Source: Massalongia carnosa (lineage: Eukaryota). Taken from it: a DNA stretch of 64,000 nt. The position numbers and the translations under genes are program-made. This document shows, piece by piece, positions 4,452-36,531 of this stretch. How positions within the stretch are numbered: position 1 is the first letter of the stretch; each line of letters starts with the position of its first letter. The stretch is from contig OZ287072.1 in assembly GCA_965645245.1 (NCBI GenBank), positions 2,356,001-2,420,000 of the forward strand, in the 5' to 3' direction. The notes below the pieces were generated by a model, which was not told the DNA's origin, did no database searches, and saw only the letters and a program-made list of their open reading frames with translations.

Positions 4452-4463
4452 GACCTGTGTGAG

Positions 4464-10551: not shown

Positions 10552-12198
10552 ATGAGCTCAAAAACGCCCATGACAGCAAGAAAAGTCGGAGCCCCTCCCA
10601 CGGAGGCTCAGACTGGTCCAGCATTTAACACCCGCGCTCGTTCCGCCTCCCGCCATTCGTGTCGTTCGGATAGCAGTATGCCAGGAACGTTCGAAGACTC
10701 CGAGCTACTGCAGAACGAGCAAATGAGAGAAACCACGGAGGGGACGTGGGAAAAAACCTCAAGAGCAGGGCGCGGAAAAGAAAAGGAAATTTTCCAAACA
10801 ATAGACGTCTCCAACCACCCATACTACGAACAGGATGCAGCGGAGCATCCGTCTCTCGTCGTGGCACACAACTTGAAAGAATTGCAGAGCATCTTGCGAG
10901 ATGAGAAAGAAGGACCCCGATGGTACGATTTTCTCGCGAGAGCGCTCGAATACGATAAGACCCTATTCGAAAAATACATCTCTATGCAGAACGATCAGGA
11001 GAAGCTTGCCGAAGCAAAAAAGATCAACAGACGTTACAAGCAAGTAAATGAACGTCTCATCGCAGAAAAGGATGATGCCGAACGAGAGGCCCTTCTCGCG
11101 CAAGAAGAACTCTCGCATAGAGATATCGAATTGGAGACAACGACTCTAGCAAAAGAGAGATTACAGAAAGACAGAGACTCCTTGATCCGCCAGTTTGCGG
11201 AAACACAGGAAACACCACGTCAGCAACGGGAAGACACCGTTGCTACCTCAAGCACTAACTACAATCCTCAGAATTGGCGACCTCGTGGTATAAACCCTAG
11301 CAAGCCACTAAAAGGTGAAGACTCGGAGGAGTATAGCCCTTGGGCGTACTCCGTCCGCAACAAACTGAAGACAGACGCACCCCTCTACGCCGACGAGAGT
11401 GAAAAGGTCGGTTACGCGCTGTCTCAAATGGAAGCGCCGATCTTCGGGGCTATGCATTCTTGGGTAGCGGATATGGGAGACTCACTATCGGCCGATGCTT
11501 TGTTCGAAGAGATAGAACACTACATGGGCATCCACCTCCAGAGCCGCGACGCCAAGAAAGAACTCCTCACCGTCACCATGAAAGGGGGCGAAAGCGTCAG
11601 CGAGTATTACCACCGAATCTTCAAGCTATGGCAGAAAGCCAAAACTCCCGTTGACGAGCGAATTGAAAAGTTCCTCGTGACGTTAAAGCCTAGCATCTCC
11701 AGCTCTCTTATGGGTTCCGTCTTTACCGATTTCCGCCCTCTACTTGACGAAGCACGAAGAATCGAAGACCGCCGCAAAGATGTGGCACATCACTTTCCCC
11801 GCCCCGATAAACCAGCTGCAACGAAGAACTCCGGCCAACGAAGCAACTTCTCCGGTGGACAGTCCTCAAACCAATCCTCCGGTGGAAAGTCCGTCTCAGC
11901 CTCCACCAACCAGATCAACTCCAGAAAATCGGACGATCGGCCAAACGCGAAGCTGACGCCAACAATAGTCAAGCCGGCCGGTTGGGTAGGCACGTGGTAC
12001 GATCCAGACCCGAACCCAAAGAAGCTGAAGGATGACGATCGTGAGTCCCTCTCCCGCCAACGCCGATGCTGGGCATGTAGGGGATCGGGACATCGAGGAC
12101 ACGATACCATCTGTCCTCAATACAAGGACAAGAATCTGAGCACCATGGGAACTGTAGAAACAGATTCAGGAACGGAATCTGATGCGGGAAAAGTCTAG
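10552..12198 (+). CDS. gag: Gypsy gag
   Basis: 548 aa, coiled-coil region, retrotransposon gag core (MKGGESVSEY), CWAC..GH..C knuckle. Confidence 0.92.
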   Translation: MSSKTPMTARKVGAPPTEAQTGPAFNTRARSASRHSCRSDSSMPGTFEDSELLQNEQMRETTEGTWEKTSRAGRGKEKEIFQTIDVSNHPYYEQDAAEHPSLVVAHNLKELQSILRDEKEGPRWYDFLARALEYDKTLFEKYISMQNDQEKLAEAKKINRRYKQVNERLIAEKDDAEREALLAQEELSHRDIELETTTLAKERLQKDRDSLIRQFAETQETPRQQREDTVATSSTNYNPQNWRPRGINPSKPLKGEDSEEYSPWAYSVRNKLKTDAPLYADESEKVGYALSQMEAPIFGAMHSWVADMGDSLSADALFEEIEHYMGIHLQSRDAKKELLTVTMKGGESVSEYYHRIFKLWQKAKTPVDERIEKFLVTLKPSISSSLMGSVFTDFRPLLDEARRIEDRRKDVAHHFPRPDKPAATKNSGQRSNFSGGQSSNQSSGGKSVSASTNQINSRKSDDRPNAKLTPTIVKPAGWVGTWYDPDPNPKKLKDDDRESLSRQRRCWACRGSGHRGHDTICPQYKDKNLSTMGTVETDSGTESDAGKV

Positions 12199-15100
12199 TC
12201 CTTGATCAAAATCGCGATCAAGGGCGTACAAATAAGGAGGTTGTTAGTGAGAACAGTGACACTGAAATGAAGATGATTAGGGTCTCTACTTGTGCTGTCC
12301 GCGATACTGAAAAGAAAATCGAGGGCAAGCATTTAGTTTTTAAAACTAGCATAGCTGGAATTAAAACCCGTTTACTGATCGATAATGGAAGTGAAGCTGA
12401 ACTCATTGACGAATCCTTTGTGCGTAAACACAAATTGAACACCTTCAAACTGGATAAGAAGGTGAAACTTACTTTGGGAAATGGAGAGGTAGTACAGCTC
12501 CTCTCGAAGGCCGCCTTGATCGACGTGAAAATTGGAGATCACGAAGAGCAAGTCTTATGTTATTTAGCAAAACTAGAAGCGTACGCAGTCATTCTAGGGG
12601 ATGGATGGCTGCAAACGCACAACCCAATGATCAATTGGAAAGAGAGAACGATGAAGTTCAACTCATCTGATTGCCTCGAAAAGGGATGTCTTACACGAGG
12701 GATAAGTTGCACCGAATTCGCTGTGGGAGGCAGGGTTAAGAATAGGACCGAGCCTAAAGAAGATATCGAAGTTCTCCCAGTCAACGCAAAACACTTCTTT
12801 CGAATGGTCAGAAAGAAGGATCACGAGGGTTACCTATGGGTTCCTCGAGAAACAAAGAAGGCCTTATGCGCAACTATCACCGGAGCAGTGACATCGGGAG
12901 ATTACGACAAGTTCATGAAGGGAAAACCGGAATACACCCGAGAGGAGTTGTTGAAGAGAGTCCCAGCAGCTTATCACAGCGTAATAGATGTCTTCATGAA
13001 GCACAAGGCAGACGAACTGCCCGAACATCGAAAGGAGGATCACCAGATAATCCTCGAAGCAGGAAAAGAGGCTCCGTACGTGAGGAACTACAAGCCCATG
13101 TCAGAACAAGAACTGGAAGCAGTTAAAAAATACATCGATGAACATCTGGAAAAAGGTTTCATCCGTCCTAGCTCTTCAAGCGCAGCAGCCCCCGTTCTTC
13201 TAGTTAGGAAACCAGGGGGTGGCCTAAGATTCTGCGTAGATTATAGAGCCTTGAACTCCATCACCATCAAGAACAGGTATCCAATACCGTTGATAAATGA
13301 GACATTGGGAAAACTGTCGCAAGCCAAGAAGTTCACGAAACTGGATGTGATTAGCGCGTTCAATCGTATGAGAATGAAAGAAGGCCATGAGTGGCTCACA
13401 GCTTTCAATACCAGATATGGTCAGTTCGAATATCTGGTGATGCCATTCGGTCTCTGCAACGCTCCAGGGACTTTTCAAAGCTTCATCAACGACACAGTCA
13501 GAGAATATTTAGACGTTTTCTGCACGGCGTATTTAGACGATGTCTTGATTTACAGCGAAAACGAAGAAGAGCATTCCGAACAAGTGTTAATAGTCCTAAC
13601 TCGATTGAAAGAGAAAGGACTGCAAGTGGATATAGACAAATGCGAATTCTCCGTAACGAAGGTAAAGTATCTTGGACTGATAGTCACCACCGAGGGGATA
13701 AAAATGGACCCGGAGAAAATCGAGGCGATTCTAAAATGGGAGACCCCAGGATCCGTCAAAGACGTGCAAGCATTCTTAGGCTTTGCGAATTTTTATCGAC
13801 GATTTATATCGAGGTTTTCGCAACGAACGAGACCATTAACAGAGTTAACGAAGGGTGAACAAATAACAACTAAATCAGGAAAGAAACGAACCAAGTATAA
13901 CTCGTTCGTTTGGTCCGAAGATTGTCAGAAAGCCTTCGAAGATTTAAAGAATGCATTCACCACCGCTCCCGTTTTAGCACATTACGACCCGGCCCTGGAA
14001 ACGTGGGTCGAGACTGACTCTTCAGATTTCGTTAGCGCCGGAGTACTCTCTCAAATGCACGACGGAGTACTGAAACCAGTGGCTTATTTCTCCAAAAAGA
14101 TGACCCCTGCCGAGTGTAACTATATGATTTACGATAAGGAGCTCCTCGCAATTGTAAAGAGCTTCGAAGTCTGGCGTCCCGAAGTTGCAAGTGCTGCTCC
14201 TGACAAACCCGTTAAAGTATACACCGATCACAAGAATTTGGAGCATTTTATGACGACAAAGCAGCTAAACAGAAGACAAGCCAGATGGGCTGAATTTCTT
14301 TCCGAGTTTAATTTCAAGATAATGTATCGACCGGGGAAGCAAGGAGAAAAACCGGACACGCTGACCCGACGCTCTCAAGATCTCCCGAAGGGATTCGAAG
14401 ATATCAGAGAGCAACATCAATTTCAAACGTTGTTGCAGGAGCATCAACTAGATGACGATATACGAAAAGCGTTAGCGGTCGTGTTCTGCGCAAACACGAT
14501 AGACGACGATAACGATAACGATCAAGATGATCGAAGCGTAGCCACTGAGGAAGACGCAACAGAATCAGAGGAACCTAACGCAGAACATACACCAGTGACC
14601 GACGTGACCGAGAGCTCGATAACGAAGACCTTGGAAGAACTAATAGAAGAGGCTTACGAAAAGGACGAAACGGTTCAAGACATAATAGCAGCAAAGAAGA
14701 AGGAACTGAGAAAACTCCCACTGAACCTCATAAAAAGAGGGATAAAGCTAGCCATGGGGGACCTCAAATTAGAAAACGACAAGCTGTATGTCAAAGGAAG
14801 ATTATACGTACCAGATCACGAGTCATTGCAATTGCATTTACTGCAAAAGCATCACGAACCACCATTACAGGGCCATCCGGGATACAAAAGTATGTATCAA
14901 ATAATGAGAGAAAATTACTTCTGGTTCGACATGAAGGAGCACTGCAAGAGATACGCCGTGAACTGCTCAGTATGTCGTAGATCAAAAGCATACAACGACA
15001 AGAAGCAGGGACTGTTGAATCCTCTCCCCATCCCGAATAGAAAATGGATGGACGTATCATTGGACTTCGTTGAATTTCTTCCAGAATGCCGAAGACGGAA

Positions 15101-16199
15101 CAGAGTCTATCAGCACATATTGGTGATAGTAGATCGTTTAACGAAAAGACGATTATACGAACCACTAACATCTCTCTCTACTGACGAACTGATGGACGCG
15201 ATGTCCAGAAGATTATTCTCCTCTTACGGATTCCCTATATCAACAGTCAACGATCGCGGTAGTCAACTAACCGCTCACTTATGGAAAAGAGTTTGCGAAA
15301 GATACGGGGTGAGAATAAAATTCTCTTCCGCACATCACCCCGAAACAGACGGTCAAACCGAGAACGCCAACAAGGTGATGAAGAACTACCTCCGAGCGTA
15401 CGTCAGTTACACACAAGACAACTGGGTGGATTATCTCTCGGACGCAGAGTTTGCCGCCAACAATCATGTAAATGTATCTACGGGAATGACCCCATTCTTC
15501 GCAGATCATGGCTTTCATCCGCGCTGTGGCATCGAACCACCAGGCACATATGAAGGAAAAGGAAGAGCGGAGATACTGCACGCTGACAAGATCATAGAAC
15601 GACAGGAAGCCATGCGAACCTGGCTTCGAGATCAATTAGCCTGGGCTCAGGAAGAACAAACAAGGCATGCAAACAAAGGCCGCCAACCTCATCCCGAATA
15701 CAAGGTCGGGGACATGGTTTATGTTAACGCCAAACATTTCGCTTTCGAAAGACCCAGCAGATCGTTAAGTTTCAAGAACGCAGGCCCGTGGAAGATAATA
15801 AGAATTATCAACAATAAAGCCTACAAACTAGAGATCCCGGATCAGTTAAAGAACGTTAATCTTACTTCCATCTTTCATCCATGGAAGCTACATCTAGCAC
15901 CTTCCAATCCATTCCCAGGTCAAGTCTTACCGCCCGGACCGCCCATAGCCATTGTCGAGAACGACGAAGAGGAGGCTCACGAAGAGTGGGAAGTCCTTGA
16001 AATAGTAGACTGCCGCGAAACAAGGAAATTCGGAGTGCAGTACAAAGCAACTTTCGTCGGCAACTGGGACGAATGGAATGCGAACCCTTACTGGCAATCA
16101 TGGACCGACTTCAAGAACTCCAAGGATAAAATCCTTCAATATCATCGCGAACACCCACATAAGCCGAAACCACCAGAAGACCTGACAGAAACAGGCTAG
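12186..16199 (+). CDS. pol: Gypsy pol (PR-RT-RH-INT-chromodomain), expressed by -1 frameshift
   Basis: LIDNGS protease, YLDD RT, ETDSS RNase H, HHCC and DDE integrase, C-terminal chromodomain. The -1 frame is open from the slippery site at 12186. Confidence 0.95.
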   Translation, partial: GKSLVLDQNRDQGRTNKEVVSENSDTEMKMIRVSTCAVRDTEKKIEGKHLVFKTSIAGIKTRLLIDNGSEAELIDESFVRKHKLNTFKLDKKVKLTLGNGEVVQLLSKAALIDVKIGDHEEQVLCYLAKLEAYAVILGDGWLQTHNPMINWKERTMKFNSSDCLEKGCLTRGISCTEFAVGGRVKNRTEPKEDIEVLPVNAKHFFRMVRKKDHEGYLWVPRETKKALCATITGAVTSGDYDKFMKGKPEYTREELLKRVPAAYHSVIDVFMKHKADELPEHRKEDHQIILEAGKEAPYVRNYKPMSEQELEAVKKYIDEHLEKGFIRPSSSSAAAPVLLVRKPGGGLRFCVDYRALNSITIKNRYPIPLINETLGKLSQAKKFTKLDVISAFNRMRMKEGHEWLTAFNTRYGQFEYLVMPFGLCNAPGTFQSFINDTVREYLDVFCTAYLDDVLIYSENEEEHSEQVLIVLTRLKEKGLQVDIDKCEFSVTKVKYLGLIVTTEGIKMDPEKIEAILKWETPGSVKDVQAFLGFANFYRRFISRFSQRTRPLTELTKGEQITTKSGKKRTKYNSFVWSEDCQKAFEDLKNAFTTAPVLAHYDPALETWVETDSSDFVSAGVLSQMHDGVLKPVAYFSKKMTPAECNYMIYDKELLAIVKSFEVWRPEVASAAPDKPVKVYTDHKNLEHFMTTKQLNRRQARWAEFLSEFNFKIMYRPGKQGEKPDTLTRRSQDLPKGFEDIREQHQFQTLLQEHQLDDDIRKALAVVFCANTIDDDNDNDQDDRSVATEEDATESEEPNAEHTPVTDVTESSITKTLEELIEEAYEKDETVQDIIAAKKKELRKLPLNLIKRGIKLAMGDLKLENDKLYVKGRLYVPDHESLQLHLLQKHHEPPLQGHPGYKSMYQIMRENYFWFDMKEHCKRYAVNCSVCRRSKAYNDKKQGLLNPLPIPNRKWMDVSLDFVEFLPECRRRNRVYQHILVIVDRLTKRRLYEPLTSLSTDELMDAMSRRLFSSYGFPISTVNDRGSQLTAHLWKRVCERYGVRIKFSSAHHPETDGQTENANKVMKNYLRAYVSYTQDNWVDYLSDAEFAANNHVNVSTGMTPFFADHGFHPRCGIEPPGTYEGKGRAEILHADKIIERQEAMRTWLRDQLAWAQEEQTRHANKGRQPHPEYKVGDMVYVNAKHFAFERPSRSLSFKNAGPWKIIRIINNKAYKLEIPDQLKNVNLTSIFHPWKLHLAPSNPFPGQVLPPGPPIAIVENDEEEAHEEWEVLEIVDCRETRKFGVQYKATFVGNWDEWNANPYWQSWTDFKNSKDKILQYHREHPHKPKPPEDLTETG

Positions 16200-23172: not shown

Positions 23173-26100
23173 TCAGGGGGAGGAAGAAAGACACTCTACA
23201 GCTAGCGAAAACTGTGTCAGTAGATTAGTCCGCATAAGCCAGCGAGCGGAGGCTCGTAAGCCCTTTTCGGTGGTCAGAAGGCGGCGATAATCCGTCGTTC
23301 CGGCGTCTCTGCATATGTTGCTTCGGCCGTTAATAAACCTGGGATAGCTGAGTAGCACATGCTTGAGCGTCTGGCGTGCCCATCCACAGCTACACGTCGG
23401 CGAAGCGAACGTGGGAACTCGACGAGAGAAGAGATAATCCGCCAAGCCAATACGCTCACTACGCATTTGAATGATGAGGCTGCTTTCGGATTTGCTGAAG
23501 TTCTTATGTAATCCCAGCCTCTTTATCGAAAGATCCTCAGTAAGCGCAGCGCAGGGATGACGCGGATGAGCCGCCTGATACGCGCTCCAGGTCTGTTTCC
23601 ACTGATTGTTGGCTAGCTCTCTGTCCGTCGGAGTGTCCTCTATCATGTCAGCAGGCCGGACTCGAGCAATCTGCCTCGTATACCAGTCACGCTTACGCTG
23701 AGCCGGCGTAGCGTTGAGGGCGCGCCGTCGTCTACCGCGCGAGGCAGTCAGCTTGCGCTTGATCTTCTCACAGAAAGCGGAGATACGTTGACCGTGTTCA
23801 TGTTCTTTAAGACGTCGTCGTGCCTTCGCCTGCAAGTGAGCCAGATGCAGCTGAATTGGAGAAACGTGAGTTTCGGCTTCGATGATGATTTGCGGAGTAG
23901 TGCGAAATCCTCCGCTTATCGCTCGCAGATACTCTCGCTGTATATCACCGAGCTGTTTGTCGATCCTCTGCGTGCCGTCGGGACGGCAATATGGCGAATG
24001 CCAGACGGTAGAGCCAAAGGTAATCGCCGGTCGCACGACGGCGCTATAAACGTTTCTCGCCTTCGTAAAGCACGCTCCCCACGTAGAAGCCGTAAGCCTG
24101 GATAATGCCAAGGTCTGCGTAGCCATTTTGCCCTGTATGAACTTTAGATGAGGGCCCCATTTAAGCTTGGAGTCGATCTGAATTCCAAGCACTCGCACCG
24201 ACGGCGAAGGCGTCTTGTCTATGCCTCCTATGCACACGGCAGCCGTCATGTCGAAGCGACGATCATTTCTGGCGAGATGTAGGAGCTCGTATTTAGCAGG
24301 CGCGAAGTGCGCTCCATGACGTCTAGCCCACAGCTCGCACATCTCGTGAGCACGTTCTAAAGCTCGACAGTTACTCGCAGTCGAGGTGCCGTATGCCAGT
24401 ATATTGATGTCGTCAATAAACCCCAACGCGGTGACTTTGAGTCGAGATCGCTCTAGCTCCTCCAAAATATCTGCGTTGTAAAAAATGTAGAGAATGGGCG
24501 ACACTGGCGACCCCTGCGGTATACCGGCGTGAACAAGGCGCATCGAAGACGTCTGACCGCCGATTGTCAGTGTGGACCTTCTTTGCTGTAAAAAGCTGCC
24601 GACCCATGCTACGATCCATTCAGAAATTTTTCTCTTGCGCAGATTGTGCAGCATTCTCTCCGCCGAGACGTGATCAAAGGCACCGGCCACATCAATGCTC
24701 AAAAGCGTGGCCACTTTGTCTGACCCCGTGTTCCACACCGTGTGTATCTGTTCGGTGAGGAGTTCAAGCGCCGTTTCACAGGATCTTTGTCGTCGTCCTC
24801 CCATCTGAGACTCAGGAAGCAGATTGTGGGTCTCCGCAATAGCGGCGATGCGTTTAGCTATGATCGATTCCAAGACCTTCCCAAGCGTATTCAGAAGCGC
24901 GATAGGTCTATAGGCCTTAGCGAGAGTGTAGTTCGGCTTGTTCGGCTTCTTGATTGCAATAGTGTGAGCCTCGCGAAAGCAGAGTGGGTGATACCCCTGC
25001 TCTGCGCAGGCGCGAAACAGAAGGACCAACGTGGGCAGTATCGACTTGATCAGAAGCTTGAGTATTCTATTCGGTATTCCGTCGGGCCCCGGAGCAGAGT
25101 CCGGCTTACAACGCTTGATTGCTGCCTCTATCTCCTCGCCTGTGATAAGAGACTCCGTTTCTGCGACAGCGGGAGGGTAGCGATACGTCGTCGTGTCGCT
25201 GAGGTCTGCCGCGGTTGCATTGGGGAAGAACATGTCAGAGAGAAGAGACGTCTTTTCGTCGAATGTGGACGCAGTGACTGCTGTGCCGTCCGCAAGCGTG
25301 TGCGTCAGATCGGGTACCTTGGGAATGTCTCGCGGTAAGTGACTGCACGTACGAGCCCATCGAGCAAGACGCCATATACCTTCGGACGCAGACGTCATCT
25401 CTACTAAGGTTCTTCTAAAGTCGAGCTTCTTCTCCTTGGTGATGATCTTCTTCTTTTCATCCGCCGATTTGAGATACCTGCGCCACGTTGCCTCTGTCTT
25501 CCACCTCGTCCACTCGCGTCTTCGACGTCGAGTCTCCGCCACAGCGACAGCGCAACGCTCGTTCCAGAAGGGTTTGGAGACGGGGCAGGGAGCCGTCCAG
25601 GGAATGGTCTCATTTATCGCGTCAATAATGGCGGACTGTAGTCGATTCGCTAAGTCGTCTATGGCTTGCGGGGTACGCGGCCACTCCGTGACTACAGGTA
25701 GACGAAGACTTTTCGCCAGATTTTCTTCGTCGGCTCGCTTCCATGCTCTCTTGCGACGTTTCACGCTCAGCTCCACCTCTAGCGTCAGCTTGGTAGAGAC
25801 GGGTATGTGATCGGACGATTGGTTCATCTCCGGACGGGTGTGACAGTGCAGCAGACTGTGTCTCAGGGAGTCGGTCATGAACACTAGGTCTATCGTGCTC
25901 GTGGATCTGCGTGCCTCCCAAGTGACAGAGCCACTAGGTAGAGTGAGCTGCATAGACGCCGCACGAACGACGTCGAGAAGCTGGTCGGCCGCTTGATGTT
26001 GTGTAGGCCTGGAGGGGCCACTCCACAGAGGGTGATGCAGATTAAAGTCTCCCAGCAAGATGTGTTCCTCTTCATCCCGCTCATGAATCTTTCGTCTCAC

Positions 26101-26499
26101 CGCCTCCACGCTTTCGAGTAGCTGGCGAGAAGAATGCGAGTCGGGTGATTGACTGTAGACGTTATGTATATTGATGTATCGTGGCTCATTACTCGCAGAT
26201 ATTCTTAGTCTCATTGTGCACACGTCCGGCGTGAGGAAGTCCACAGCCCAAGAATTGACGTCTAATCTTTTATTAATATAGAAACACGCACGTACATTCT
26301 CATTCGACATAAACGCAAGATGAAAGCCGGAATTGAACGGATTGTGCGACGTGCAAACGCTGGGGTTGCGCCATGGTTCCTGAATGGCTAAGACGTCATA
26401 CTCCTCTATTCTCTTGTCCGCCAGTAGAGGGGTCATGACCCCGTTCTTGCTCTTTCTGATGTTATACTGTAATATTGAAAGAGATGTCTGTCCCGCCAT
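23173..26499 (-). CDS. LINE ORF2: AP endonuclease + reverse transcriptase
   Basis: ILQYN, AIQEPW, LGDFNLHH and SDH endonuclease motifs; APGPDG, YRPIALL, GIPQGSP and FIDD RT motifs; C-terminal CSC..H knuckle with the last Cys apparently changed to Tyr. Confidence 0.96.
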   Translation of the reverse strand: MAGQTSLSILQYNIRKSKNGVMTPLLADKRIEEYDVLAIQEPWRNPSVCTSHNPFNSGFHLAFMSNENVRACFYINKRLDVNSWAVDFLTPDVCTMRLRISASNEPRYINIHNVYSQSPDSHSSRQLLESVEAVRRKIHERDEEEHILLGDFNLHHPLWSGPSRPTQHQAADQLLDVVRAASMQLTLPSGSVTWEARRSTSTIDLVFMTDSLRHSLLHCHTRPEMNQSSDHIPVSTKLTLEVELSVKRRKRAWKRADEENLAKSLRLPVVTEWPRTPQAIDDLANRLQSAIIDAINETIPWTAPCPVSKPFWNERCAVAVAETRRRRREWTRWKTEATWRRYLKSADEKKKIITKEKKLDFRRTLVEMTSASEGIWRLARWARTCSHLPRDIPKVPDLTHTLADGTAVTASTFDEKTSLLSDMFFPNATAADLSDTTTYRYPPAVAETESLITGEEIEAAIKRCKPDSAPGPDGIPNRILKLLIKSILPTLVLLFRACAEQGYHPLCFREAHTIAIKKPNKPNYTLAKAYRPIALLNTLGKVLESIIAKRIAAIAETHNLLPESQMGGRRQRSCETALELLTEQIHTVWNTGSDKVATLLSIDVAGAFDHVSAERMLHNLRKRKISEWIVAWVGSFLQQRRSTLTIGGQTSSMRLVHAGIPQGSPVSPILYIFYNADILEELERSRLKVTALGFIDDINILAYGTSTASNCRALERAHEMCELWARRHGAHFAPAKYELLHLARNDRRFDMTAAVCIGGIDKTPSPSVRVLGIQIDSKLKWGPHLKFIQGKMATQTLALSRLTASTWGACFTKARNVYSAVVRPAITFGSTVWHSPYCRPDGTQRIDKQLGDIQREYLRAISGGFRTTPQIIIEAETHVSPIQLHLAHLQAKARRRLKEHEHGQRISAFCEKIKRKLTASRGRRRRALNATPAQRKRDWYTRQIARVRPADMIEDTPTDRELANNQWKQTWSAYQAAHPRHPCAALTEDLSIKRLGLHKNFSKSESSLIIQMRSERIGLADYLFSRRVPTFASPTCSCGWARQTLKHVLLSYPRFINGRSNICRDAGTTDYRRLLTTEKGLRASARWLMRTNLLTQFSLAVECLSSSP

Positions 26500-28169
26500 T
26501 ACTGGGTATTTCGGGAGACTTTGCCGCTGATTCTGTGAAGCGGCGGGCGGCCGCGCTTCGGCTTGGGCTGTGGCTGTGTCTGCGAATGCGCCTTCGGCGC
26601 CGGAGGAGGCATGGGGTAACGAAGGAGTGCAAGGGCGCTGTCAGACCTATGAGAAGACGAGGCCGGCTGTGAGTCAGGTACAACCGACACGCTGGCTCTG
26701 CGCCTAGTAGGAGATGGCGAGGAGCCTTCTCCAGGTCCCTGCGAGTGTGCCCTCTTGCCGTGTGTAGAGGGGAGAGCCGGAAAGCTGTTGGTGACTGTAT
26801 TAATGTCGAGGCTCATAATCGTGGAGCCGTCCTGAGTCAACTCGTTCGGCTCCTCGGCCTCGGGGGTTGGCGAGCGGCTTCGCTCGCGCACTGCCTGATG
26901 ACGTGTTGGCGCAGGTGTATGAGACGTCGTGTCGCCGGCGTTATTGCGTCGTTCTACTGTCTGACTTTGTCGAGGAAGGACAACCGCCTCCGTCTCGACA
27001 TGCCACGTTGGTCGGTTCTTCCAGATACCATTCAGGCGCTCCTTCTCCTCTTTTCGGACGGGGCAGAGGTGAGACCACGCCGGATGATTCCCGCCGCACA
27101 CGGCGCACTTGCGTCGATCCGCAGGCGCTTTGCATGCTTGCGAGCGATGTCCTTGAGCGCAGCCTGCGCATCGAAGGGCGTTCTTGCATGCGGTGCCCGT
27201 ATGTCCGTACTTCTGGCAGTGAAAGCACTGTTTTAGACGACAGTTCTTATCGAAGTACTCACATATTCTATGCGAGTAATCCTGCAGAAGACCCTCTTTA
27301 ATCAGTCTGTTTGCCGTCTCTGCGGTGGCTACTTCAACTATTAGCGAGGAGTGAATCTTGGCTTCTGAAACTGCCCTTTTGGTCCATGCAATGCGGTAGA
27401 TCTGCAGTCCCGGATGAAGCTGCTCATTCTGTTTCTCTAGACTCTTGATGGTAGCTTGTGCGTTAACTGTGTCGACGCTGTCTACGCGCACCCCATGCGC
27501 TAACACAGCGAATGTGCGTCGCACTACATACGCTGAGTCCGCAAGCCCTTTATGTAGCTGTTGATCCATCTCCATTCTAGCCTTAGCTTCCATCGTGCAC
27601 GCCAGCAGCTCCAAGTCGCCGCTTGGGAGACGTCGCACCGCCAGTACATCGCCGGTCTTCTCCTCGATAGTCTTGATTCTGTCCATAAGTGCCTTGTTCG
27701 ACAAGGCTTTGATTCCGACTTTCTCTGCGTCGTTCCTGAACTTGATCAGAACGGACTTTCTTCTCTTTATCCCCTCCAGCTGTCGTTGCTGCTCCATTAC
27801 GGAGTTGCGCGTCGCCGTCGTGTTGCTGTCGTTTCTGCTACTTCCTGCGGACGCTACCGCGGCGTAGCTCTTGACTGCTGCCGTCGTCTTGGTCGTGTTC
27901 GCTTCTATGCGCGTTAATTGCTGTTGAATCAGCTGCACATCATTGCGTAGCTCGCTCTCCGGAAGCGCGAGAAAGTGAATCAACTCCTTTGCTTCTTGTA
28001 GCAGTGTCAAGATCTCTGATCCCTTACTTATCTCTCTGGATTTGTCGCGTAGCTGTTTTTCAATGTCAGCTATTGCGCGTACTGCTCGGCTCGTAAGGTT
28101 TGCGCTGCTTTTCTTCTCTTGTAGCGCCCGCGCAGCGATGTCGCCACGCCGCCTACTCGGCGTCGACAT
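26499..28169 (-). CDS. LINE ORF1 (gag-like, zinc knuckles)
   Basis: CFHCQKYGH, CAGCAQGH and CAVCGGNH knuckles; its stop overlaps the ORF2 start (TAATG). Confidence 0.94.
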   Translation of the reverse strand: MSTPSRRRGDIAARALQEKKSSANLTSRAVRAIADIEKQLRDKSREISKGSEILTLLQEAKELIHFLALPESELRNDVQLIQQQLTRIEANTTKTTAAVKSYAAVASAGSSRNDSNTTATRNSVMEQQRQLEGIKRRKSVLIKFRNDAEKVGIKALSNKALMDRIKTIEEKTGDVLAVRRLPSGDLELLACTMEAKARMEMDQQLHKGLADSAYVVRRTFAVLAHGVRVDSVDTVNAQATIKSLEKQNEQLHPGLQIYRIAWTKRAVSEAKIHSSLIVEVATAETANRLIKEGLLQDYSHRICEYFDKNCRLKQCFHCQKYGHTGTACKNALRCAGCAQGHRSQACKAPADRRKCAVCGGNHPAWSHLCPVRKEEKERLNGIWKNRPTWHVETEAVVLPRQSQTVERRNNAGDTTSHTPAPTRHQAVRERSRSPTPEAEEPNELTQDGSTIMSLDINTVTNSFPALPSTHGKRAHSQGPGEGSSPSPTRRRASVSVVPDSQPASSSHRSDSALALLRYPMPPPAPKAHSQTQPQPKPKRGRPPLHRISGKVSRNTQ

Positions 28170-28343
28170 AACGTCGGTACGCGTTACAAGGGAAGACGTG
28201 TTGAGAGAATAGATAGATGTGAGTCAAATCAATAATAGTAGCCTAGATTGTGGTTGTCCTTCAAAAATGGAATGTCAAATCCTGCATTTTGCACTTTTCC
28301 CATTTTCACTACCATTTCTGCTACAAATCGAGGACAACAACGG

Positions 28344-30411
28344 TTATGTAGAAACTGATTGATTATGACGCTGGTAAAATAGCTTCGCTTGTCTGGGCAT
28401 CGATCTGGCGATTCTTTTATACCTTTTGTCCAGGGCAATCTGCTTCTTTTCAGCAGCTAGTGTGGCACGTTCATAGGCCAGTCTGGTCTTTTCCACCTCG
28501 TTCTGACAACGTTTCGAGGTTTTGGCCCGTACATCTCCCACAGTTATGACCTCTCCCTTCTGGGCGACCTTTCCATCCAATTTTCTACGGGCCGCCTTCG
28601 CGATGGACTGCTGTTGACTGGCTCGAAGGTCCCGCTCAATAATCTGACGTGCATGCGCATTGGAAATAGAGCCCTTCACAAATCGATTCACATGACAATC
28701 CCATTCATTGTTCAGCACGTTGTATTTCTTCAAACTCATTCGAAGGTGTAAGCCATATTCAACCACCTCTTTAGTCGTACGGGGCGTTCTGGCGAGCAGG
28801 GGCTGACAAAGGTGGGGGCCGGGTAGCAGGTCTCCGAGTTTGAATTGCCTCCAGCTTTCGAATTACCACATTGGGGTTATAAGGCACCAGACCCGTGTTT
28901 CTGAATGACGATAATATGGTAGATGAGGTGAATGTTTGATTTCGCATGCGCTGAAAAATGGACAAAAAATCCAGTTTGTCGAAATCTGCCCCTCCGAGTC
29001 GCACCATTTCGTCAATGCCTTCGGAATGATAATGTTTGAACGGCTGAAAACATCCTACATCCAATGGCTGAGTGAGATGTGTTGAATGAGGCGGCAAACG
29101 AAACAATTCAATGTGATTTCGTTTGGCATATGTAAAAAACTCATATGTCATATGAGATCCATACCCGTCCATGATCAACATACGCCAGGCCCCTACCTGA
29201 CCCTTTCAACTGTGTTTATCGAAATGTTTCAACCAATCAATAGCCAAATCATCATTGGAATAGCCGGTAGGACTAGTAGTCAACAAAACATCGTCATTCA
29301 GATCGTTTTGTTGTGTCCACTTTTCGAGAATCAAACCCCCCGCGATAATCACCATGGGGGGAATGTTTCGCCCCCCAGCACTAATACACTCACACGAGGT
29401 GACATATTCTCTATTATCTGGATCTGTCAATAGCAAGGGCTTTCTGGAGTGAGTTGATATAACCCAATGAGCCTGCCACAGCCAATTCGAAAGCCCGTTT
29501 CATCCATGTTCCAAACGTCCTCGTCCGCTATTCCCCGCGTCTTTCGCGCAGTTCGATATGTAATTCGCGGGCTCCATCGTGTCAGCTGAACATATACATA
29601 ATTTCTATCTATGTTTGGGCAACTCTCCCCTCGCTGCTGCCCTGCTGGCGCTCAGTTTTGCTGAGGGCCCCTCCTATAATGGCTTTGTTTTGGCAGCAGT
29701 GAGGGGAAAAACTCCATCTACCTATGCGGCTGATTCAGGGAGTGGGTGGGTGGAAAAGACCTTTTGGTGCTGAACTCCGAATCAATGGTGATGATGAGGA
29801 GAAGAGTGCCAAAAGGCCACCTATTTATGCCCTTTCTCTCCCTTGTTTGTCCAACTATTTTGGACATCATCCTCCTTTGTCCTTCGGCCTTTGTTGGCTG
29901 TTCGCGGCCTGCCTCCACTCGGTCCCGGCATTACCTTTCGCCTTAGCCGAATTTCTGCTTCAAAATACTCGAGCATGTCCTTTGCATTGTGCGCGTGTTT
30001 TCGCTCAGCGGCCAGAGGTTTTTGTTTTCGCTTGAAAAATTGAGGATGACGATTGAGGAAACGTTTGGTCCAGGCCTCGCTGACGTGAGGGGGGGGGATG
30101 GAGGCGTCTAAATGAGCATCTCGAAGTCGATAATTAGCAGCCCCCCGAACCATTGAAAACCTGGCTGATTGTTCGGCTTGATCGAGCATCACAGTATACT
30201 CACAAAGGGCCAATTCTTGTTCATCAGATAAGGCCTTGTTGGGGCCAGATCGACCGATGAGCGAACCCTCTCCAGCAAGTCGTCTTTGAAGCGTACGAAT
30301 GTCGACATCGAAATCAATGGCTAATGCGCGTATACTTCGAAATTCACCCGTGTTCCACGCGTTTATAGCATCGAAAATTTGATCCTCCTTATTAGAATAT
30401 GAGTTAGGCAT
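28344..30411 (-). pseudogene. Disrupted pogo/Fot1 transposase
   Basis: N-terminal HTH (30411-29956), WNMDETGF, LIMDGYGSH, QPLDVGCF; broken by an insertion, frameshifts and stops. Confidence 0.9.
29559..29955. mobile_element. Unclassified ~397-bp insertion (solo-LTR-like, hairpin-rich, no TSD)
   Basis: Removing it restores transposase ..YFEAYRTARK..; ends TGTAATTCG / CGAATTTC. Confidence 0.7.
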
Positions 30412-30973
30412 GGTGGTGGTAGATGAACGACGTGGTGAAAATGGTAGTGAAAATGGGAAAAGTGCGTCAGTAGACTGTATGCGTCAGTAGACCGTTGGGC
30501 ACTAGACCCTGACTCGTTTGGGGTTTAGTGTTTTGGCACGATTAATAGCTATCACAACTGGGTCTTGGCCTTTGATTCATCGCCATGCAGAGTAAGAGTT
30601 AAGGCAAACTATGATTAATCCCGATCATTGTGATGGACCATCTCCAGATAATTGGTGCCTTCGGCGCGGGCCGAGCACCTCCGAGTCATGTGACACTCCT
30701 AAGCACTGAGTTTATTGCAATCAATTTTTGTCCACGTGCCACCTTTCATTTACGAATACGGTTTTATTAATAACTTATCAATAACAAAAGCGTAAGTTTA
30801 ATTTTACTACAAATAAAACCCTGTAAATAATAAAGAAAATACAAGTTAGCGATCGATTAAACATGTAAAGTCGGGTATTATTCCACGTCTGTTTATGTCG
30901 AGGTATAAAAGTTAAGCAACGTGAAAAATTCTTTCCCTTTTCAACTCCTCCCAACAACACCATCTTCATCAAC

Positions 30974-31850
30974 ATGCAAACACGCACGCGACTCCCCCGT
31001 GCCTGCCGCCACGACCGCACTCCTCTCCTATCAACCGGCCGTCGCCGGCACAAAAAACCACCCTCTTCCATCCTCGGCCCTGCCCCAGGTTCAGCTCCCA
31101 ACTCCGCCTTCCGCCCCGCTAAAGCCAGTTTCGGAAATCGTCCCTCATGGAATGTTCAGCCACTTTCCCGTTCGGTTAGCGTCCCCATTTCATCCGCGCC
31201 TTCTTCTCCGTCGAGTGTCCCGTCTTCACCCGATCCTCCAAAGCTTGTCGTTGATGATTCAGTTTCGGCTATTGCCGTTTCTGGTGACGCGGTTCCTTTG
31301 CCTCCGCCTCCGCCTCCGAAGTGGGTGGGGCCGACCCCGAAAGTGGGCGTTTGTCTTCGGTGCTCTAAGCTCCTTATGGATCGAGAAGATGTTGCCTGTG
31401 TGTGGACGAGGGAGTCTAGTAAATGCGGCGAATGCATTCGCAAGAAACATTGTTGTCTTCCGGTAACTAGATAAGCTGATCCAAGACAAAGTTGAGACTT
31501 AACCTGACGGTTTATTAGGTCCCTATAGTTTTTCAACGCACAGTTTCACAGCTAATATCTGAAATCTCTGGCCTGAGCACTAATGCCTTAACCGAAACCG
31601 CGCGTGTCCGCCGCCGTTTTAACGGCTACGTCAAGCGATTGTCGGTTTGGGAGGGTCAGCGCGCAAGAGATCTGAAGTCTGACCGGGGGGTTTTGGATGC
31701 TCTTGCTCGTGTGGAACGCTTGATTTTTGAGGGCAATGCTCTTGCGCGTTATCAGGTATGGTTCTTTTCTATGTTACTTTATTAAACTAATAGTCTTAGG
31801 CTGGTCTAGAGGTGGGGCCCCCTGAGGGTGAGGATATTATGGAGGACTGA
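30974..31850 (+). CDS. Three-exon gene (~258 aa): Pro/Ser-rich N-terminus and atypical Zn2Cys6-like cluster
   Basis: Exons 30974-31462, 31519-31755 and 31800-31850 with GT..AG introns, all in frame; pattern C-x2-C-x11-C-x8-C-x2-C-x6-C. Confidence 0.75.
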
Positions 31851-32197
31851 GAGCTTATTTTTTGTTCTCGTGATCCTCGTGACAATTGTATCGTAGTCGA
31901 GTTCTTTTGAATTTTGAATATATTCATAACACTTTTATTCTTGTATTATGTACAGCTTATCAAAAATAACTACCTTTCGTATCTTTAATTTCGTTCGATA
32001 AAAACTATTCAACTGTAATATTTATCGTAAATAAAGAGACTTAACGAGAAAAGCCTCTGTTCCTTTTTAAAAAGTTATTACAAAATATTAACTTATTATT
32101 TTTTTTCGATTAAACAGACTAAGTGTTGAGGATGTTCTCTATGATATTGCAGAACCTTTTCGATAGACTTTCTGAAGTCGGTCCATGGTTGCCAAGG

Positions 32198-32404
32198 ATC
32201 GGTCCTCCTCCTTCTACACCATCGGTCCTCCTCCTTCTACACCATCGGTCCTCCTCCTTCTACACCATCGGTCCTCCTCCTTCTACACCATCGGTCCTCC
32301 TCCTTCTACACCATCGGTCCTGCTCCTTCTACACCATCGGTCCTCCTCCTTCTACACCATCGGTCCTCCTCCTTCTACACCATCGGTCCTCCTCCTTCTA
32401 CATC
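32198..32404. repeat. 23-bp tandem array, ~9 copies
   Basis: Unit ATCGGTCCTCCTCCTTCTACACC. Confidence 0.96.
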
Positions 32405-32488
32405 ACGCGTCGCAGACGTACGTACGGAAGAGGATACGAAAGCCAACCGCCGGGGGGTCGAATGCGCGCGTCCCTGCACCATGCTTCT

Positions 32489-33200
32489 AAGGGTTCAAGT
32501 CCCTTCATGCAGTCATCAGCTGGAAGAAGATGTGGACCAAAGGAGCCCCATCATCCCCCACCCGGGCACAGTCGACACGCGTTCTAGCTCCTGAGAGTTC
32601 AAGTCTCCCCATGCAGTCATCAGCTGGGATCAACAGAACGCGTAAAGGCACCGGGGCGAATGCCGTCACCTCAAGAAAACTCCATCTCGGAGCAGAATAA
32701 CAATATCCTATTTAACAGGCCCGGCCTGTTAAATAAATTCGAGGAAAACACAGAGTCACAAAACACATATTCATCAATCACACGTTGTGCAAAGCACACA
32801 GTCACAAAGCACACAGTCACAAACATACAGTCACAAACACACAGTCACAAAACACACAGTCACAAAACACACAGTCACAAATCAATAACACGTCCCTGTG
32901 AAGGGGGTTCTGCGGGGCTCGTTAAGGCAGATCTGCACCCCGTTAATATCGGAGTACATATTTTTAGAGGTTCAAGTCCTTTCTAGCAGTCATCAGCTGA
33001 AAATAATGCATTTTGACACGGGCATGGTGTGGATTTGACACGGGTAGACCTCGATGGATCACAAAACGAATGAAAAGAGTTCAGCGGAATTTCGTTAATA
33101 TTGTTCTCGAAGACCTCGTTGATAAGATTTTCATAGACCTCGTTAACAACGTTCGTTCATACTCTTAAAGGTTCAAGTCCTTTCATGCAGTCATCGGCTG
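32489..33200 (+). repeat. Four spaced 34-bp motifs with a tRNA T-arm/B-box-like hairpin
   Basis: Copies at 32489, 32593, 32966 and 33167: RRRRG-TTCAAGT-CYYYY-C(AT/TA)GCAGTCATCRGCTG. Confidence 0.85.
32796..32880. repeat. Short tandem repeat (ACACAGTCACAA-like, ~6 copies)
   Basis: Repeating 14-15-bp unit. Confidence 0.85.
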
Positions 33201-34019
33201 AGAGCTAGAGACGTACGACACGGGTCAGCTATGTCTATCACACGGGTCTCCTTCGTCTACAACACGGAGCCCTCCGGCTGAAAGAAATAAAACATATAGA
33301 CACATAGTGTAGGGTCACACCCTACACGATACAAGGGATTTGGGTTATGAAAACCATCCGATTGATGGCTACCGTGAGCAACACGGCCCGAACCGGAGTC
33401 GTACCGGGGCTGGTGGAGGCAACCTAGTCATCAAATAGGACACCCTTGGGACAAGAAGAGGGCAATGTACGAGGAACCCGTTAATTGATAACAGTCTAGG
33501 CCCTGAGCTAATAGACCAATTTCAAACGAGCACCCCTCCGAGTTGTCCTCGACTCGTTTTGGTTAGTAGGGACGGAAAATCGATACTATACTGCCTGGTC
33601 AGGAGCATAGTGGTCGAAATCCCTGCGAGACATGGTCGGTTCATAAACGGGAGACCTTTATGAATAACGCGAAGTGGGCGTAAAAAACCCGTGAGGCGTG
33701 GTATGCAATGGCGGCCACCCGTACGGAGACCGTCTGCATAGCCCGAGAGGACAGTATGCGCATGTCGGTGTATATAGAGCAGGGAATGTCTATCTCGCTC
33801 ATAACGAGACCCCGTCGGTTCGCCGGCGCATGGGCTACGGCTAGACTCGCCCTTGATATATGCTTAAGGAGTAAACTAGGTTTGACCTGGGCGAAAGGGA
33901 CGTCGTTCACCCCAATCGTAGAATTCATCAATAGTCTTGGGCCGTAAAACGCACCAGTGAGATGAACGAAAACTGGGATAGATACTTCACGAAGGAGATG
34001 TCAACTCTATTTTATCATT

Positions 34020-35477
34020 CTTAGCCAGTTTCAAGGAGCGCCGACACTCGCAGCTACACAAACGAACGAAATTTCGTCAACATGGAAGATTGTGAACGGC
34101 AAGAAAAGAAAAATGCACAACGCGGAGCTCTCAGCCGATTTATCACCGGGCTTCCCCCGAGGAGAGCAAGTATCAACCTGGGCTAATATAGGCATTATGA
34201 ATCCTGAAAACATGATCAAAGCCTTAGCAAAACCAGCGCTAGGTAGACCCCGCGCAGAATCCGTAGTAACGACAGGTACCCAGGCCACCCCAGTCACAGT
34301 GGTCGAAACCATGGAAATCCTATGAGGGACATAAAATCCCTCTCGATATTGCAGTATAATGTCAGAAATGACAGAGTGAGTACTATGATACCCCTCTTAG
34401 CAGACACAAACACCCAGGACTATGATATCATTGCAATACAGGAGCCGTGGCGTTACCCATCCGCCCCCACATTGCTCAGTTCACATCAAAGTGGCTTTCA
34501 CCTTATATACCGCCCAGGAGGCGACACCAGAGTGTGCTTCTATATCAACGATTCAATAGACACTGACAGCTGGGAAGTAGAATTTCCCTCGGCCGACATG
34601 TGCACGCTAAAAATAGAAACATGCACCGAAGGCGTAGCGGAGGTGATCAATATACACAACGTATACAATCCCTCCCCTGCCTCCTATTCGTCCACTGACA
34701 GCCCCTCCACTCTATCGACCGCTCGGAGCATGCTAACCCAAGGCGTGCATCATATCCTGCTTGGTGATTTCAATCTGCATCATCCATTTTGGAACGGTCC
34801 TTCAAGACCCACACAACATGCTGCAGCTATCAATTGTTAGATATCATCGATGAGTTCAATCTCTCGCTAACATTGCCGAAAGGCACCGTAACATGGAAGC
34901 AAGAAACACATTTAGCACGATCGATCTAGTTTTCATGTCAGAATATCTAGTTGAAAGACTTGAACACTGCATGACCAGACCAGAATTAAATCAATCGTCC
35001 GATCACGTACCGATATCAACCCGCATCCTACTCGGTAGTGAGTCGCAACCAAAAAGTAAACGCAGGGCATGGAAACTTCTGAATTTGGAAAAATTAAGGG
35101 AAGCCGAGCGCCACGCACCTCCACCGACGTCTCCCTGCACACCTGCCGAGATCGATAGGTACACAGAATCGATTCAAAAATTCCTACAAAATGTCATCAA
35201 TGCAGCCGTTCCATGGGCGAAATCTAGCGAATATGCTAAGCCTTTCTGGACAGAAGAGTGCAATATTGCCACCAAAGCCACACGAAAATTACGCCGCATA
35301 TGGTCTGACACACGAGATCCAGCGGACTGGTCCAACTACATGAAATCTAATGACAAGAAACAGAAAATTATCCAAAAAGCAAAGAGGACAAATTTTCGTC
35401 AAGAGATCAGTAAGGCTACCGAAACGCCTCAGGGTCTGTGGCGGCTAGCGAAATGGGCCAAAGACAAAAGTCACACA
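34020..35477 (+). mobile_element. Truncated Tad1-like LINE (end of ORF1; ORF2 endonuclease from 34322)
   Basis: ILQYN, AIQEPW, LGDFNLHH and SDH motifs similar to the 23173-26499 ORF2; ATGA overlap; frameshift at ~34830; RT domain missing. Confidence 0.9.
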
Positions 35478-35478
35478 G

Positions 35479-36144
35479 CTAGTCATGGCAGATGATGATG
35501 CCTCCGGGGCGCAACATGCTCAGTATATGGCTCGCGTTGATGCGCCAAAAGGGAATCTGCGGGTCGTGTGGATATATGCTACCTAGGACGAGCTGGTAGC
35601 TCAGTCTACCCAGCATGTCTCGCATCCTTCCGCTGAAGAAGCCGGAGCCTGGCCGGAAGTATTTGGGCGGAGGCTCTACCTCCACAGCAGCGTAGGCCTC
35701 GCGGATCAGCTCCTCTACGCGCTGTATCTGCTCCGCAAGAGTGACGTCGCTCAAGGATCGTGAGGGCTCGTCGTACATGGCGTGGTTCCCCAGGTCGTTT
35801 CCGCCGCGGACGAGATCTTGCAGTGTCGCCTCGTGCCTTGCGACTTGCGATCCGACAACGAAGAATGTCGCGGTCGCATCGTTCGCTTTTAGGATTTGCA
35901 TGATCTCATCCGTATAATCGGATGGGCCATCGTCAATTGTCAGCGCTATGGTCTTCGAGGACGTGGGCACGCGCCAGAGGACGTTGGGCCACTGACGTTG
36001 GAAATAACGGACCAAGAACGCGGGAGGTTTGTATATCATGTAGAGAGGCGCAATCAAGATGCACATGACGCTCAACAAGACAAGCATTGTTGCAATTCTT
36101 AAGCGTTGAGTTCGTCGGTGTAACTTGAAAAACAAACGATACAT
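35479..36144 (-). pseudogene. C-terminally truncated polysaccharide/chitin deacetylase (NodB, CE4)
   Basis: ALTIDDGP, ATFFVVG, LGNH, YFRPGSG and IIICHD motifs; N-terminal TM; ends abruptly at the LINE fragment junction. Confidence 0.85.
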
Positions 36145-36531
36145 CTTGTTTACAAGGTGAAAAAATTGTTTGTTGAATCTCATTCTATCAAATTAATTTA
36201 ACCTTTTAATCCACATTTGAGATTCTCGAAAGTTTACCAGTAGGTTTTTTAATTAATTTTAATCGTTATAAAATATTTGAAAAATTAGATTAAATTTGCA
36301 AAAGAAATTGATTTTTAAGTTCTCGCGGGGGGTCGGATTCAGGAATATCCACGATATCCAACCCGACCTTTAGGCGTAGTTTCAACAACGCTTGCCCGTT
36401 TTAAAATGACTTCTTTTCGTCAGAGTCAGCTAGCCTAGAGTTCTCGTTCTACTGACTTCAGTCTTCAATGCTCTTAATATTACTCGTACGATCTTTGCCT
36501 TTCTCGAGTTGACTGCGATCTATTGTAGATT

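Follow-up and report, generated by a model that had tools for sequence, protein, structure and literature searches.

Repeated T-loop RNA units in the non-coding leader of a candidate MINE-like chimeric retroelement from Massalongia carnosa

Magnaporthe has been known since 2005–2007 to contain chimeras between long interspersed nuclear elements (LINEs) and a non-coding 5′ partner. A comparable arrangement is described here for a stretch of 64,000 nucleotides from Massalongia carnosa (assembly GCA_965645245.1, contig OZ287072.1, positions 2,356,001 to 2,420,000 of the forward strand; hereafter the window, with positions counted from its first letter), in which four copies of a motif resembling the T arm of a tRNA lie in non-coding DNA leading into a truncated LINE. 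In the sections of PMC2104539 on which this comparison draws, MINE of Magnaporthe grisea consists of a 1.1-kb non-coding RNA, called WEIRD, fused to the LINE MGL at 28 truncation sites; it is flanked by direct repeats of 10–20 bp, and the chimerization site has the consensus GCC*A/U. MINE/WEIRD sequences are given in that paper under GenBank EF585235–EF585237. The same sections explain the WEIRD-MGL chimeras by the LINE reverse transcriptase having jumped between templates, report neither a solo copy of WEIRD nor relatives of it in other genomes, and leave it, as of 2007, as an RNA without function, relatives or known structure. Chimeras of the U6-L1 type are attributed there to a jump from the LINE RNA onto the 3′ end of another RNA. 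In the parts of PMC3383444 and PMC4035085 that concern it, the Pr77/hepatitis delta virus (HDV)-like hallmark of trypanosomatid retroposons such as L1Tc and NARTc is a signature common to autonomous and non-autonomous non-long-terminal-repeat (non-LTR) elements.

The reading proposed here, which we hold with slightly better than even confidence, is that each of the four motifs forms the invariant tip of a folded RNA unit, and that these units lie in the non-coding leader of a MINE-like chimeric ascomycete non-LTR retroelement, where they would have a docking role. The anatomy itself, that is, three-way-junction units in a leader whose 3′ end is fixed and adjoins a variably truncated LINE, is very probable, and the docking function of the units is put forward tentatively. 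As in MINE, a non-coding 5′ module of ~1–2 kb with a constant 3′ end precedes a LINE that is 5′-truncated at many points, and target-site duplications flank the composite (here at three related loci, L001, L028 and L023); the consensus GCC*A/U can be set against the ...GGC(C) or ...AGCC with which the leader ends at the junctions here. The present leader is 1.6–2.0 kb long and often 5′-truncated, versus 1.1 kb for WEIRD, and its family, unlike WEIRD in the account drawn on, is found in 40 metagenome loci and several fungal runs. A folded repeat unit with a T-loop motif is present here and does not figure in what those sections of PMC2104539 say of WEIRD.

The other described systems share single traits with this locus. 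In U6-L1 and other mammalian chimeric retrogenes, too, a single pair of target-site duplications encloses an insert of two parts, but their 5′ partner, in the same partial account (PMC2104539), is a known small nuclear RNA for which the cell has a gene, whereas the 5′ partner in the present case is long and carries repeated folded units. The conserved structured 5′ signature is also shared with Pr77, which is presented in the parts of PMC3383444 and PMC4035085 used here as a single 77-nt unit at the extreme 5′ terminus, with promoter and self-cleaving activity; unlike Pr77, the 2–4 units here are set 85–870 nt into the leader, match no ribozyme and show no sign of cleavage. The unit also resembles a tRNA T arm, the head of a short interspersed nuclear element (SINE) or a B-box, since it has a 5-bp stem, a 7-nt loop of the UUCRANN type and, in 27 of 42 units, the B-box consensus, but it differs from the T arm in having another three-way junction, a second hairpin in place of the acceptor strand, and invariance of all seven loop bases. 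The 14-mer tail of the motif has no occurrence, in either orientation, in the searched literature, and no such unit is described in the literature searched on WEIRD/MGL and on T-loop or tRNA-like fungal retrotransposon RNA.

In the window, the non-coding leader (module A) occupies 32405–34026 on the + strand and finishes at the fixed 3′ end ...CTTAGCC, as delimited by contig breaks and by colinearity with related loci (L001–L041); this copy appears to be 5′-truncated. Searching the open reading frames (ORFs) of at least 50 amino acids (aa) in 32123–34396 against Pfam gave no match within the leader, and ORFs of at least 130 aa are absent from most related leaders. The LINE body follows on the same strand from 34027 to about 35460 and corresponds, by Pfam and blastx, to the N-terminal part of ORF2, namely the apurinic-type endonuclease and the stretch before the reverse transcriptase. 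Exo_endo_phos and Exo_endo_phos_2 are matched on 34247–34840 and 34854–35495, and blastx aligns the segment with aa 6–387 of ORF2 of another LINE of the window (23173–28223) at 43–52% identity. The frames are interrupted, and the element stops before the reverse transcriptase, lacking its 3′ part. At the equivalent position, L007 and L010 carry reverse transcriptase and RNase H, so the hallmarks of an endonuclease-bearing LINE are found for 34027–35460, the endonuclease in the window and the reverse transcriptase in those two loci.

The structure of the junction was compared among the loci with at least 490 nt of sequence beyond the leader. Same-strand LINE coding sequence comes right after the leader in 16 loci and the window, out of 19 (18 loci plus the window), and it is entered at no fewer than 13 distinct points, from ORF1 aa 224 to ORF2 aa 989. 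The entry lies in ORF1 at aa 224 in L014 and aa 306 in L030; in ORF2, it lies at aa 1 (L007), 6 (window), 334 (L010), 486 (L015), 635 (L039), 721–725 (L009, L026 and L041), 791 (L016), 840 (L033), 921 (L032), 965 (L025), 980 (L023) and 989 (L001 and L028). On the leader side, the junction varies by no more than a few bases, reading ...CCTTGG(C)(C) in one family, CTTAGCC in the window and YTTGGC generally. Of the independent copies of the best-sampled family, about half begin within ~25 nt of one point, located ~870 nt before the first unit, and the remaining copies are 5′-truncated at various places, while the 3′ ends are constant. The composite ends in a (TAAT)n tail and is surrounded by target-site duplications of ~8–11 bp in L001, L028 and L023. 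Taking into account that L001 and L028 have one junction and different flanks, a chimeric copy seems to have moved again. Three further explanations of this structure were dropped. A spliced LINE, with a constant donor and variable acceptors, is contradicted by the lack of a GT after the leader end at any junction. A solo LTR would have TG...CA ends, which are missing, and truncation on the 5′ side combined with a fixed 3′ end is in line with a retroposon. As for the primer-binding site of an LTR element, the TGG is lacking where it would be expected.

The fold of the unit was derived from 39 units no more than 88% alike, chosen from the 96 found and aligned without gaps in 74 columns. It is a three-way junction formed by the helix P2, the T hairpin (5 bp, with the T-loop-like loop UUCAAGU), a 4-nt linker and the small hairpin CAGU-CAUCA-GCUG, with a near-invariant U between P2 and the T hairpin (38 of the 39 units). 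Paired cells make up 80.1% of the total, compared with 67.8 ± 1.1% in shuffled alignments, and the covariation score is 0.492, compared with 0.262, none of 500 shuffles reaching either value; when the 3′ partner was slid as a control, 42–56% of cells were paired. The T hairpin is paired in 95.9% of its cells and shows changes on both sides in four of its five pairs, its loop being invariant in all 39 units. The four junction-proximal pairs of P2 are 88–100% paired, with CG and UA nearly equal in number, and the small hairpin contains one C-G to G-C swap, seen in 2 units. RNAalifold without guidance returned the same junction. The covariation is not an effect of ascertainment, because the stem positions either lie outside the search pattern or stand as N within it. 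Within the well-aligned helices, G-U cells outnumber A-C cells by 35 to 9 (binomial p = 1e-4), an excess that points to folding in the RNA of the + strand, on which the LINE ORFs also lie.

A long form, in which P2 extends outward as a rod of ~140 nt with one or two asymmetric internal loops, accounts for about half of the units. Among 42 non-redundant units, GTTRA occurs upstream in 22, and ACAYRGG occurs downstream in 20 and upstream in 3. The order of elements along the rod, obtained with RNAalifold from 13 units, is GGG/CCC, CUCGU/ACGGG, an internal loop of UAAUAC versus AC, UGG/CCA, P2 and the junction; changes on both sides occur in 15 of the 30 predicted pairs, and one CUCGU/ACGGG pair is CG in 6 units and UA in 4. 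Units 3 and 4 of the window are of the long form, with two nested loops each, and units 1 and 2 are of the short form.

The covariance model built for the unit, R1, finds exactly four units in the window (62–68 bits), all on the + strand. Unit 1 (32471–32544; motif 32489–32522), with P2, T-loop hairpin and P4, scores 65.3 bits (E 2.9e-20) with a model that was itself built partly from this unit. Unit 2 (32575–32648; motif 32593–32626) scores 62.3 bits, and its P2 is an 8-bp helix, CGCGUUCU/AGAACGCG, in the predicted fold. Unit 3 forms a long rod at 32912–33053 (core 32948–33021, motif 32966–32999; 63.0 bits), flanked by two GTTRA upstream and two ACAYRGG downstream; the three-way junction is reached through two internal loops, one nested in the other (CGUUAA... 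/ ...ACACGGG), and this nested rod is the minimum-free-energy fold. Unit 4, the other long rod (33111–33250; core 33149–33222, motif 33167–33200; 68.3 bits), has three GTTRA upstream and two ACAYRGG downstream, and its minimum-free-energy fold comprises the rod, the T hairpin and P4.

The four 34-nt motif copies, separated by spacers of 70, 339 and 167 nt, lie exactly where a preliminary description of this DNA had placed them. The pattern GTTCAAGTC-N7-GCAGTCATCRGCTG matches these four places in the 64 kb with 0 mismatches and no further place when up to 3 mismatches are allowed; dinucleotide-preserving shuffles gave a match in 0 of 100, the chance expectation being 0. The T-arm-like hairpin with the invariant UUCAAGU loop and the 5-bp stem also stands as it had been described, the stems being AAGGG/CCCTT, GAGAG/CTCCC (one A-C), AGAGG/CCTTT (one G-U) and AAAGG/CCTTT, and the covariation asserted for them is significant in the shuffle test on the 39 units. 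The likeness extends past the 34 nt, with repeat families of 47–58 nt, and copies 3 and 4 are 80% alike across 65 nt. The spacers, however, had been taken as unrelated; they contain instead internal loops and outer helices belonging to the folded units, together with a tandem repeat of 15 bp. A contig from one public run (X6) matches across 32404–34026, which shows the spacers to be a constant component of a repeated element. Thus, of the findings that the preliminary description had named as telling against its own proposal, membership of a transposable element with fixed spacers was observed, whereas a lack of covariation was not. The T-arm-like arrays are a conserved, covarying, repeated RNA unit of a transposable element, with no curated family.

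Other parts of the leader are conserved as well. Block 1 (33283–33470, + strand) is 72–77% identical by blastn to many loci and contains covarying hairpins, whose paired segments change together in a MAFFT alignment inspected by eye; block 2 (33539–33800, + strand) is matched by blastn over 33558–33792 in at least 20 loci; and the 3′-terminal block (33840–34026, + strand), defined by an alignment of 14 leaders, by the junctions and by contig breaks, ends in YUUGGC (CUUAGCC in the window) at the LINE junction. Three segments 3′ of the array (33300–33450, 33558–33792 and 33860–33940) are colinear and 72–77% identical in many loci. Units and colinear downstream blocks together indicate that the whole of 32405–34026 is a conserved non-coding module. 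The spacer between units 2 and 3 contains, at 32790–32890 on the + strand, a tandem repeat of ~15 bp (CACAGTCACAAAA-like; family D2 of the repeat search), whose length differs among copies: joints in contigs of the runs X1, X4 and X5 skip or repeat parts of 32762–32916. A perfect 13-bp hairpin, TATTTAACAGGCC/GGCCTGTTAAATA, lies in the same spacer at 32709–32735, and two letters of this region (32709 and 32738) differ in most other copies.

Relatives of the array were sought with the pattern in metagenome contigs, where 41 loci were found, 40 of them homologous; the remaining one, L018, is a partial chance match in a bacterial GGDEF gene and was excluded from the unit counts. Several loci represent one place in two or more assemblies (L002=L033, L001~L034, L019~L032, L016=L022, L007=L021=L037=L038, L005=L011, L008=L020, L006=L013 and L004=L029=L031). 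No match to the pattern was obtained in prokaryotes (185,579 species, one genome each) or in viral contigs. Some loci are flanked by fungal genes, as in L004, where Zn2Cys6 and Fungal_trans_2 domains are found. Most loci contain 2–4 units when up to 4 mismatches are allowed, and R1 gives 54 matches in 22 loci, one being the partial match in L018. In the family of L001–L039, with a unit spacing of 183 nt, copies differ mostly by C-to-T and G-to-A changes, in AT-rich flanks, as would be expected if the repeat-induced point mutation of ascomycetes had acted on them; this transition bias recurs in the comparison of the runs. In the 5′ part of the leader of L001 and its relatives, ~250 nt before the first unit, TTAACCCTTTAA and CTAACCCCTAG resemble complements of telomere repeats, a likeness taken as chance.

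Part of 31500–34300 is matched by eight public runs, one of them labelled 'lichen metagenome', and contigs of four runs were compared with 29500–36500. At 30670–32073 and 35584–36500, the depth is that of one contig (765 and 802, respectively, in X1), while many contigs with 85–100% likeness cover 32074–35583 at a summed depth of 9e4–5e5, a figure that is not a copy number and that shows a repeated family all the same. The segment 32074–35583 is therefore a many-copy family in the public runs. An X6 contig of 8,164 nt matches 32404–34026 with 33 differing letters and 4 gaps (~98%) and has unlike sequence on both sides, and contigs of X5 and X4 likewise break at 34026/34027. The sequence preceding 32404 is common to X5 and X6, which suggests that the window copy is 5′-truncated at that point. 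Single-copy DNA resumes at about 35453–35583.

It is proposed that the LINE reverse transcriptase, when it pauses or reaches the end of the LINE RNA, would jump to the 3′ end of the leader RNA. The repeated junction/T-loop units in the + strand RNA may act as docking modules for LINE proteins or for their own tertiary fold, and these modules would keep the leader RNA close to, or within, the LINE particle and make the chimeric transcript more stable. The leader would thereby become a preferred acceptor for the jump, and chimeras would keep multiplying. A broader possibility, which we regard as doubtful, is that filamentous ascomycetes have a widespread family of long structured non-coding RNAs that has not been described so far, to which WEIRD and the present leader both belong and which is parasitic on LINEs by 5′ capture; the units would then bind the LINE particle, and the reverse transcriptase would end each round by jumping onto the 3′ end of the leader. 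If so, dead, 5′-truncated LINE copies would gain a new transcribed front end.

Several points weigh against the proposal of a docked, MINE-like leader. None of the 12 public runs listed is on record as RNA, so that transcription and a free leader RNA are inferred; the docking function has analogy as its sole basis; and WEIRD and the leader are likened by architecture, as described in the sections of PMC2104539 drawn on, and not by sequence. The invariance of the core is partly a matter of ascertainment, the loci having been found with that same pattern, and the units are mutually related, so that the shuffle counts overstate their independence. Across all 18 pairs, the G-U to A-C ratio falls to 54 to 43 (p = 0.31), a loss of asymmetry ascribed to the misalignment of outer P2 columns in an alignment without gaps, and mutation of the repeat-induced type could bias G-U against A-C. 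Single segments (76 nt and ~150 nt, on both strands where tried) fold no more stably than shuffles (z −1.8 to +1.4). At the junction, L004 and L008 have no LINE match in the 606–827 nt beyond the leader, and mimicry of the LINE 3′ end by that of the leader was examined and set aside, the common words being of only 7–9 nt (E ≥ 0.25). Given that the window composite is without its 3′ part, no target-site duplication can be demonstrated in the window itself.

Among the alternatives, it is unlikely, although to be taken seriously, that the leader is the true 5′ untranslated region (UTR) of one LINE family, with the units as tandem DNA promoter monomers, the CAGCTG box and the B-box-like GGTTCAAGTCC as transcription-factor sites, and the junctions as internal deletions. 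Some LINE 5′ UTRs do carry tandem promoter monomers, and the units here stand in tandem sets of 2–4 with several invariant blocks; in both the window and L007 they lie 0.9–1.2 kb upstream of ORF2, on the coding strand. However, pairing-preserving covariation and a G-U excess on one strand are not predicted by DNA binding sites; deletions should vary on both sides, so that a leader side constant within a few bases, facing a LINE side that ranges from ORF1 aa 224 to ORF2 aa 989, counts against them; and the full-length LINE of the window (23173–28223, − strand) has no units upstream, as judged by pattern search and by R1. B-box clusters and tRNA-derived SINEs are TFIIIC sites, and the units might be DNA B-boxes for this factor, either as an internal RNA polymerase III (Pol III) promoter of the leader RNA or as an anti-silencing chromatin barrier; we consider this quite improbable. 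The consensus GGTTCRANNCC is found in 27 of the 42 units and in three of the four window copies (copy 2, AGTTCAAGTCT, lacks it), and six related leader copies of 0.9–2.0 kb have no T run of 5 or more; the scarcity of such runs is, however, near chance (an estimated ~0.5 T5 runs per 1.8 kb), and a T5 run lies inside unit 3 of the window. No A-box of the TRGCNNARNNGG type is present 30–65 nt upstream of the B-box in any of the 42 units, even with one mismatch allowed, and ARAGORN finds no tRNA gene in the 64-kb window, in agreement with the statement of the preliminary description that neither an A-box nor a cloverleaf could be seen. Loop positions that the B-box consensus does not constrain are invariant and the stems covary, so the constraint exceeds a B-box, and a Pol III transcript of 1.6–2 kb would be unusual. 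The suggestion of a free-standing TFIIIC insulator cluster is not supported either: the position of the array within a retroelement of many copies speaks against a locus-specific boundary, and the constraint bears on + strand pairing and not just on a DNA box.

Very improbable, too, is the idea that the leader RNA is cut at the units, by RNase P or Z with the units as tRNA mimics or by self-cleavage with the units as small ribozymes, to free small RNAs or to set ends. Enzymes that process or modify tRNAs recognise a T-loop hairpin, the units are in tandem, a tRNA-Sec model aligns to one unit in a weak, cloverleaf-like manner (12.2 bits, E 7.3), and CUGAUGA is read on the minus strand. Against this, no Rfam family is matched in the window at the gathering score, and, with lax limits (E ≤ 1 on six loci, E ≤ 10 on one unit and the whole leader), no ribozyme or tRNA family appears on either strand, only chance-level matches to DicF, HOTAIR_3, SpR10, small nucleolar RNAs (snoRNAs) and mir-223; models of the hammerhead, HDV-like, hairpin, twister, pistol and hatchet ribozymes have no match in the six loci, the unit or the leader. 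The supported fold is a plain three-way junction with its conserved bases in loops, with neither the hammerhead GAAA nor a pseudoknot. Processing signals that cut a polycistronic RNA, as had been suggested, do not agree with retro-copies that keep 2–4 contiguous units and up to ~870 nt of leader upstream, because such uncut arrays mean that the RNA that was reverse-transcribed had not been cut at the units. As for att-like sites of a cassette array, also suggested earlier, or the 3′ ends of a rolling-circle (Helitron-like) element, the chance is close to nil. A hairpin followed by CTGG or CTGA and the differing sequence between copies recall such sites, but none of the four copies has a T after CTRR, Pfam finds no Rep, helicase or recombinase nearby, and the element bears LINE hallmarks (5′ truncation, (TAAT)n tail and target-site duplications); moreover, the spacers are conserved between copies and species as parts of the element and are thus not captured cassettes.

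A few resemblances of the unit to known RNAs were followed and abandoned. For a minus-strand hammerhead, CUGAUGA is not followed by helix II and GAAA; for a minus-strand cluster of C/D snoRNAs, the TGATGA and CTGA boxes overlap in one invariant block, and neither a D box nor a terminal stem stands at snoRNA spacing; and for a permuted or split tRNA, the sequence downstream contains no complementary 5′ half. Resemblances to loop B of the hairpin ribozyme, to the Alu domain of the signal recognition particle RNA and to the three-way junction of telomerase RNA were dropped, with no match in Rfam.

A leader comparable to WEIRD is now available as a conserved family with a covarying repeated unit and conserved downstream blocks. 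The model R1 and the alignments provide a handle for finding such leaders in fungal genomes and for testing whether WEIRD is a member, as well as a basis for asking which RNA features make preferred targets for LINE template jumps. For genome annotation, it has to be considered that such arrays mimic orphan tRNA arms or B-boxes, yet belong to a transposable element.

The 5′ surroundings of the leader are themselves repetitive. Directly 5′ of it, at 32198–32404, lie nine tandem copies of a 23-bp unit, ATCGGTCCTCCTCCTTCTACACC, which is many-copy in the runs; in another copy (X4), this array has a different continuation after ~32391, and it thus belongs to another repeat, into or beside which the leader was inserted. 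Just 5′ of the 23-bp array, the 68 nt at 32127–32194 are 76% identical, in reverse orientation, to 16092–16159, the end of the pol ORF of a gypsy element of the window. The repeated region begins around 32127–32194, and the single-copy contig stops at 32157. A low-depth contig of X1 joins 32483 to 33157, that is, unit 1 straight onto unit 4 with 674 nt skipped, so copies with fewer units exist; they probably arose by recombination between units.

At the other end, the truncated LINE stops a few bases from the stop codon of a minus-strand polysaccharide deacetylase gene (35479–36183, by Pfam). The absence of its reverse transcriptase and 3′ end is not predicted by target-primed insertion, and it seems likely that a later deletion or rearrangement removed the 3′ part. 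The window as a whole is eukaryotic DNA rich in transposons, as annotated with Pfam: a copia element at 1593–5381 (− strand), the gypsy element at 10552–16199 (+ strand), a full LINE with ORF1 and ORF2 at 23173–28223 (− strand), pogo-like DDE genes, a Mutator-like element (MULE) and an ankyrin gene. The LINE at 23173–28223 is seemingly intact, with an ORF1 of 556 aa that has no Pfam match and an ORF2 of 1108 aa with endonuclease and reverse transcriptase. The closest protein-cluster relatives of the deacetylase are mostly from Ascomycota.

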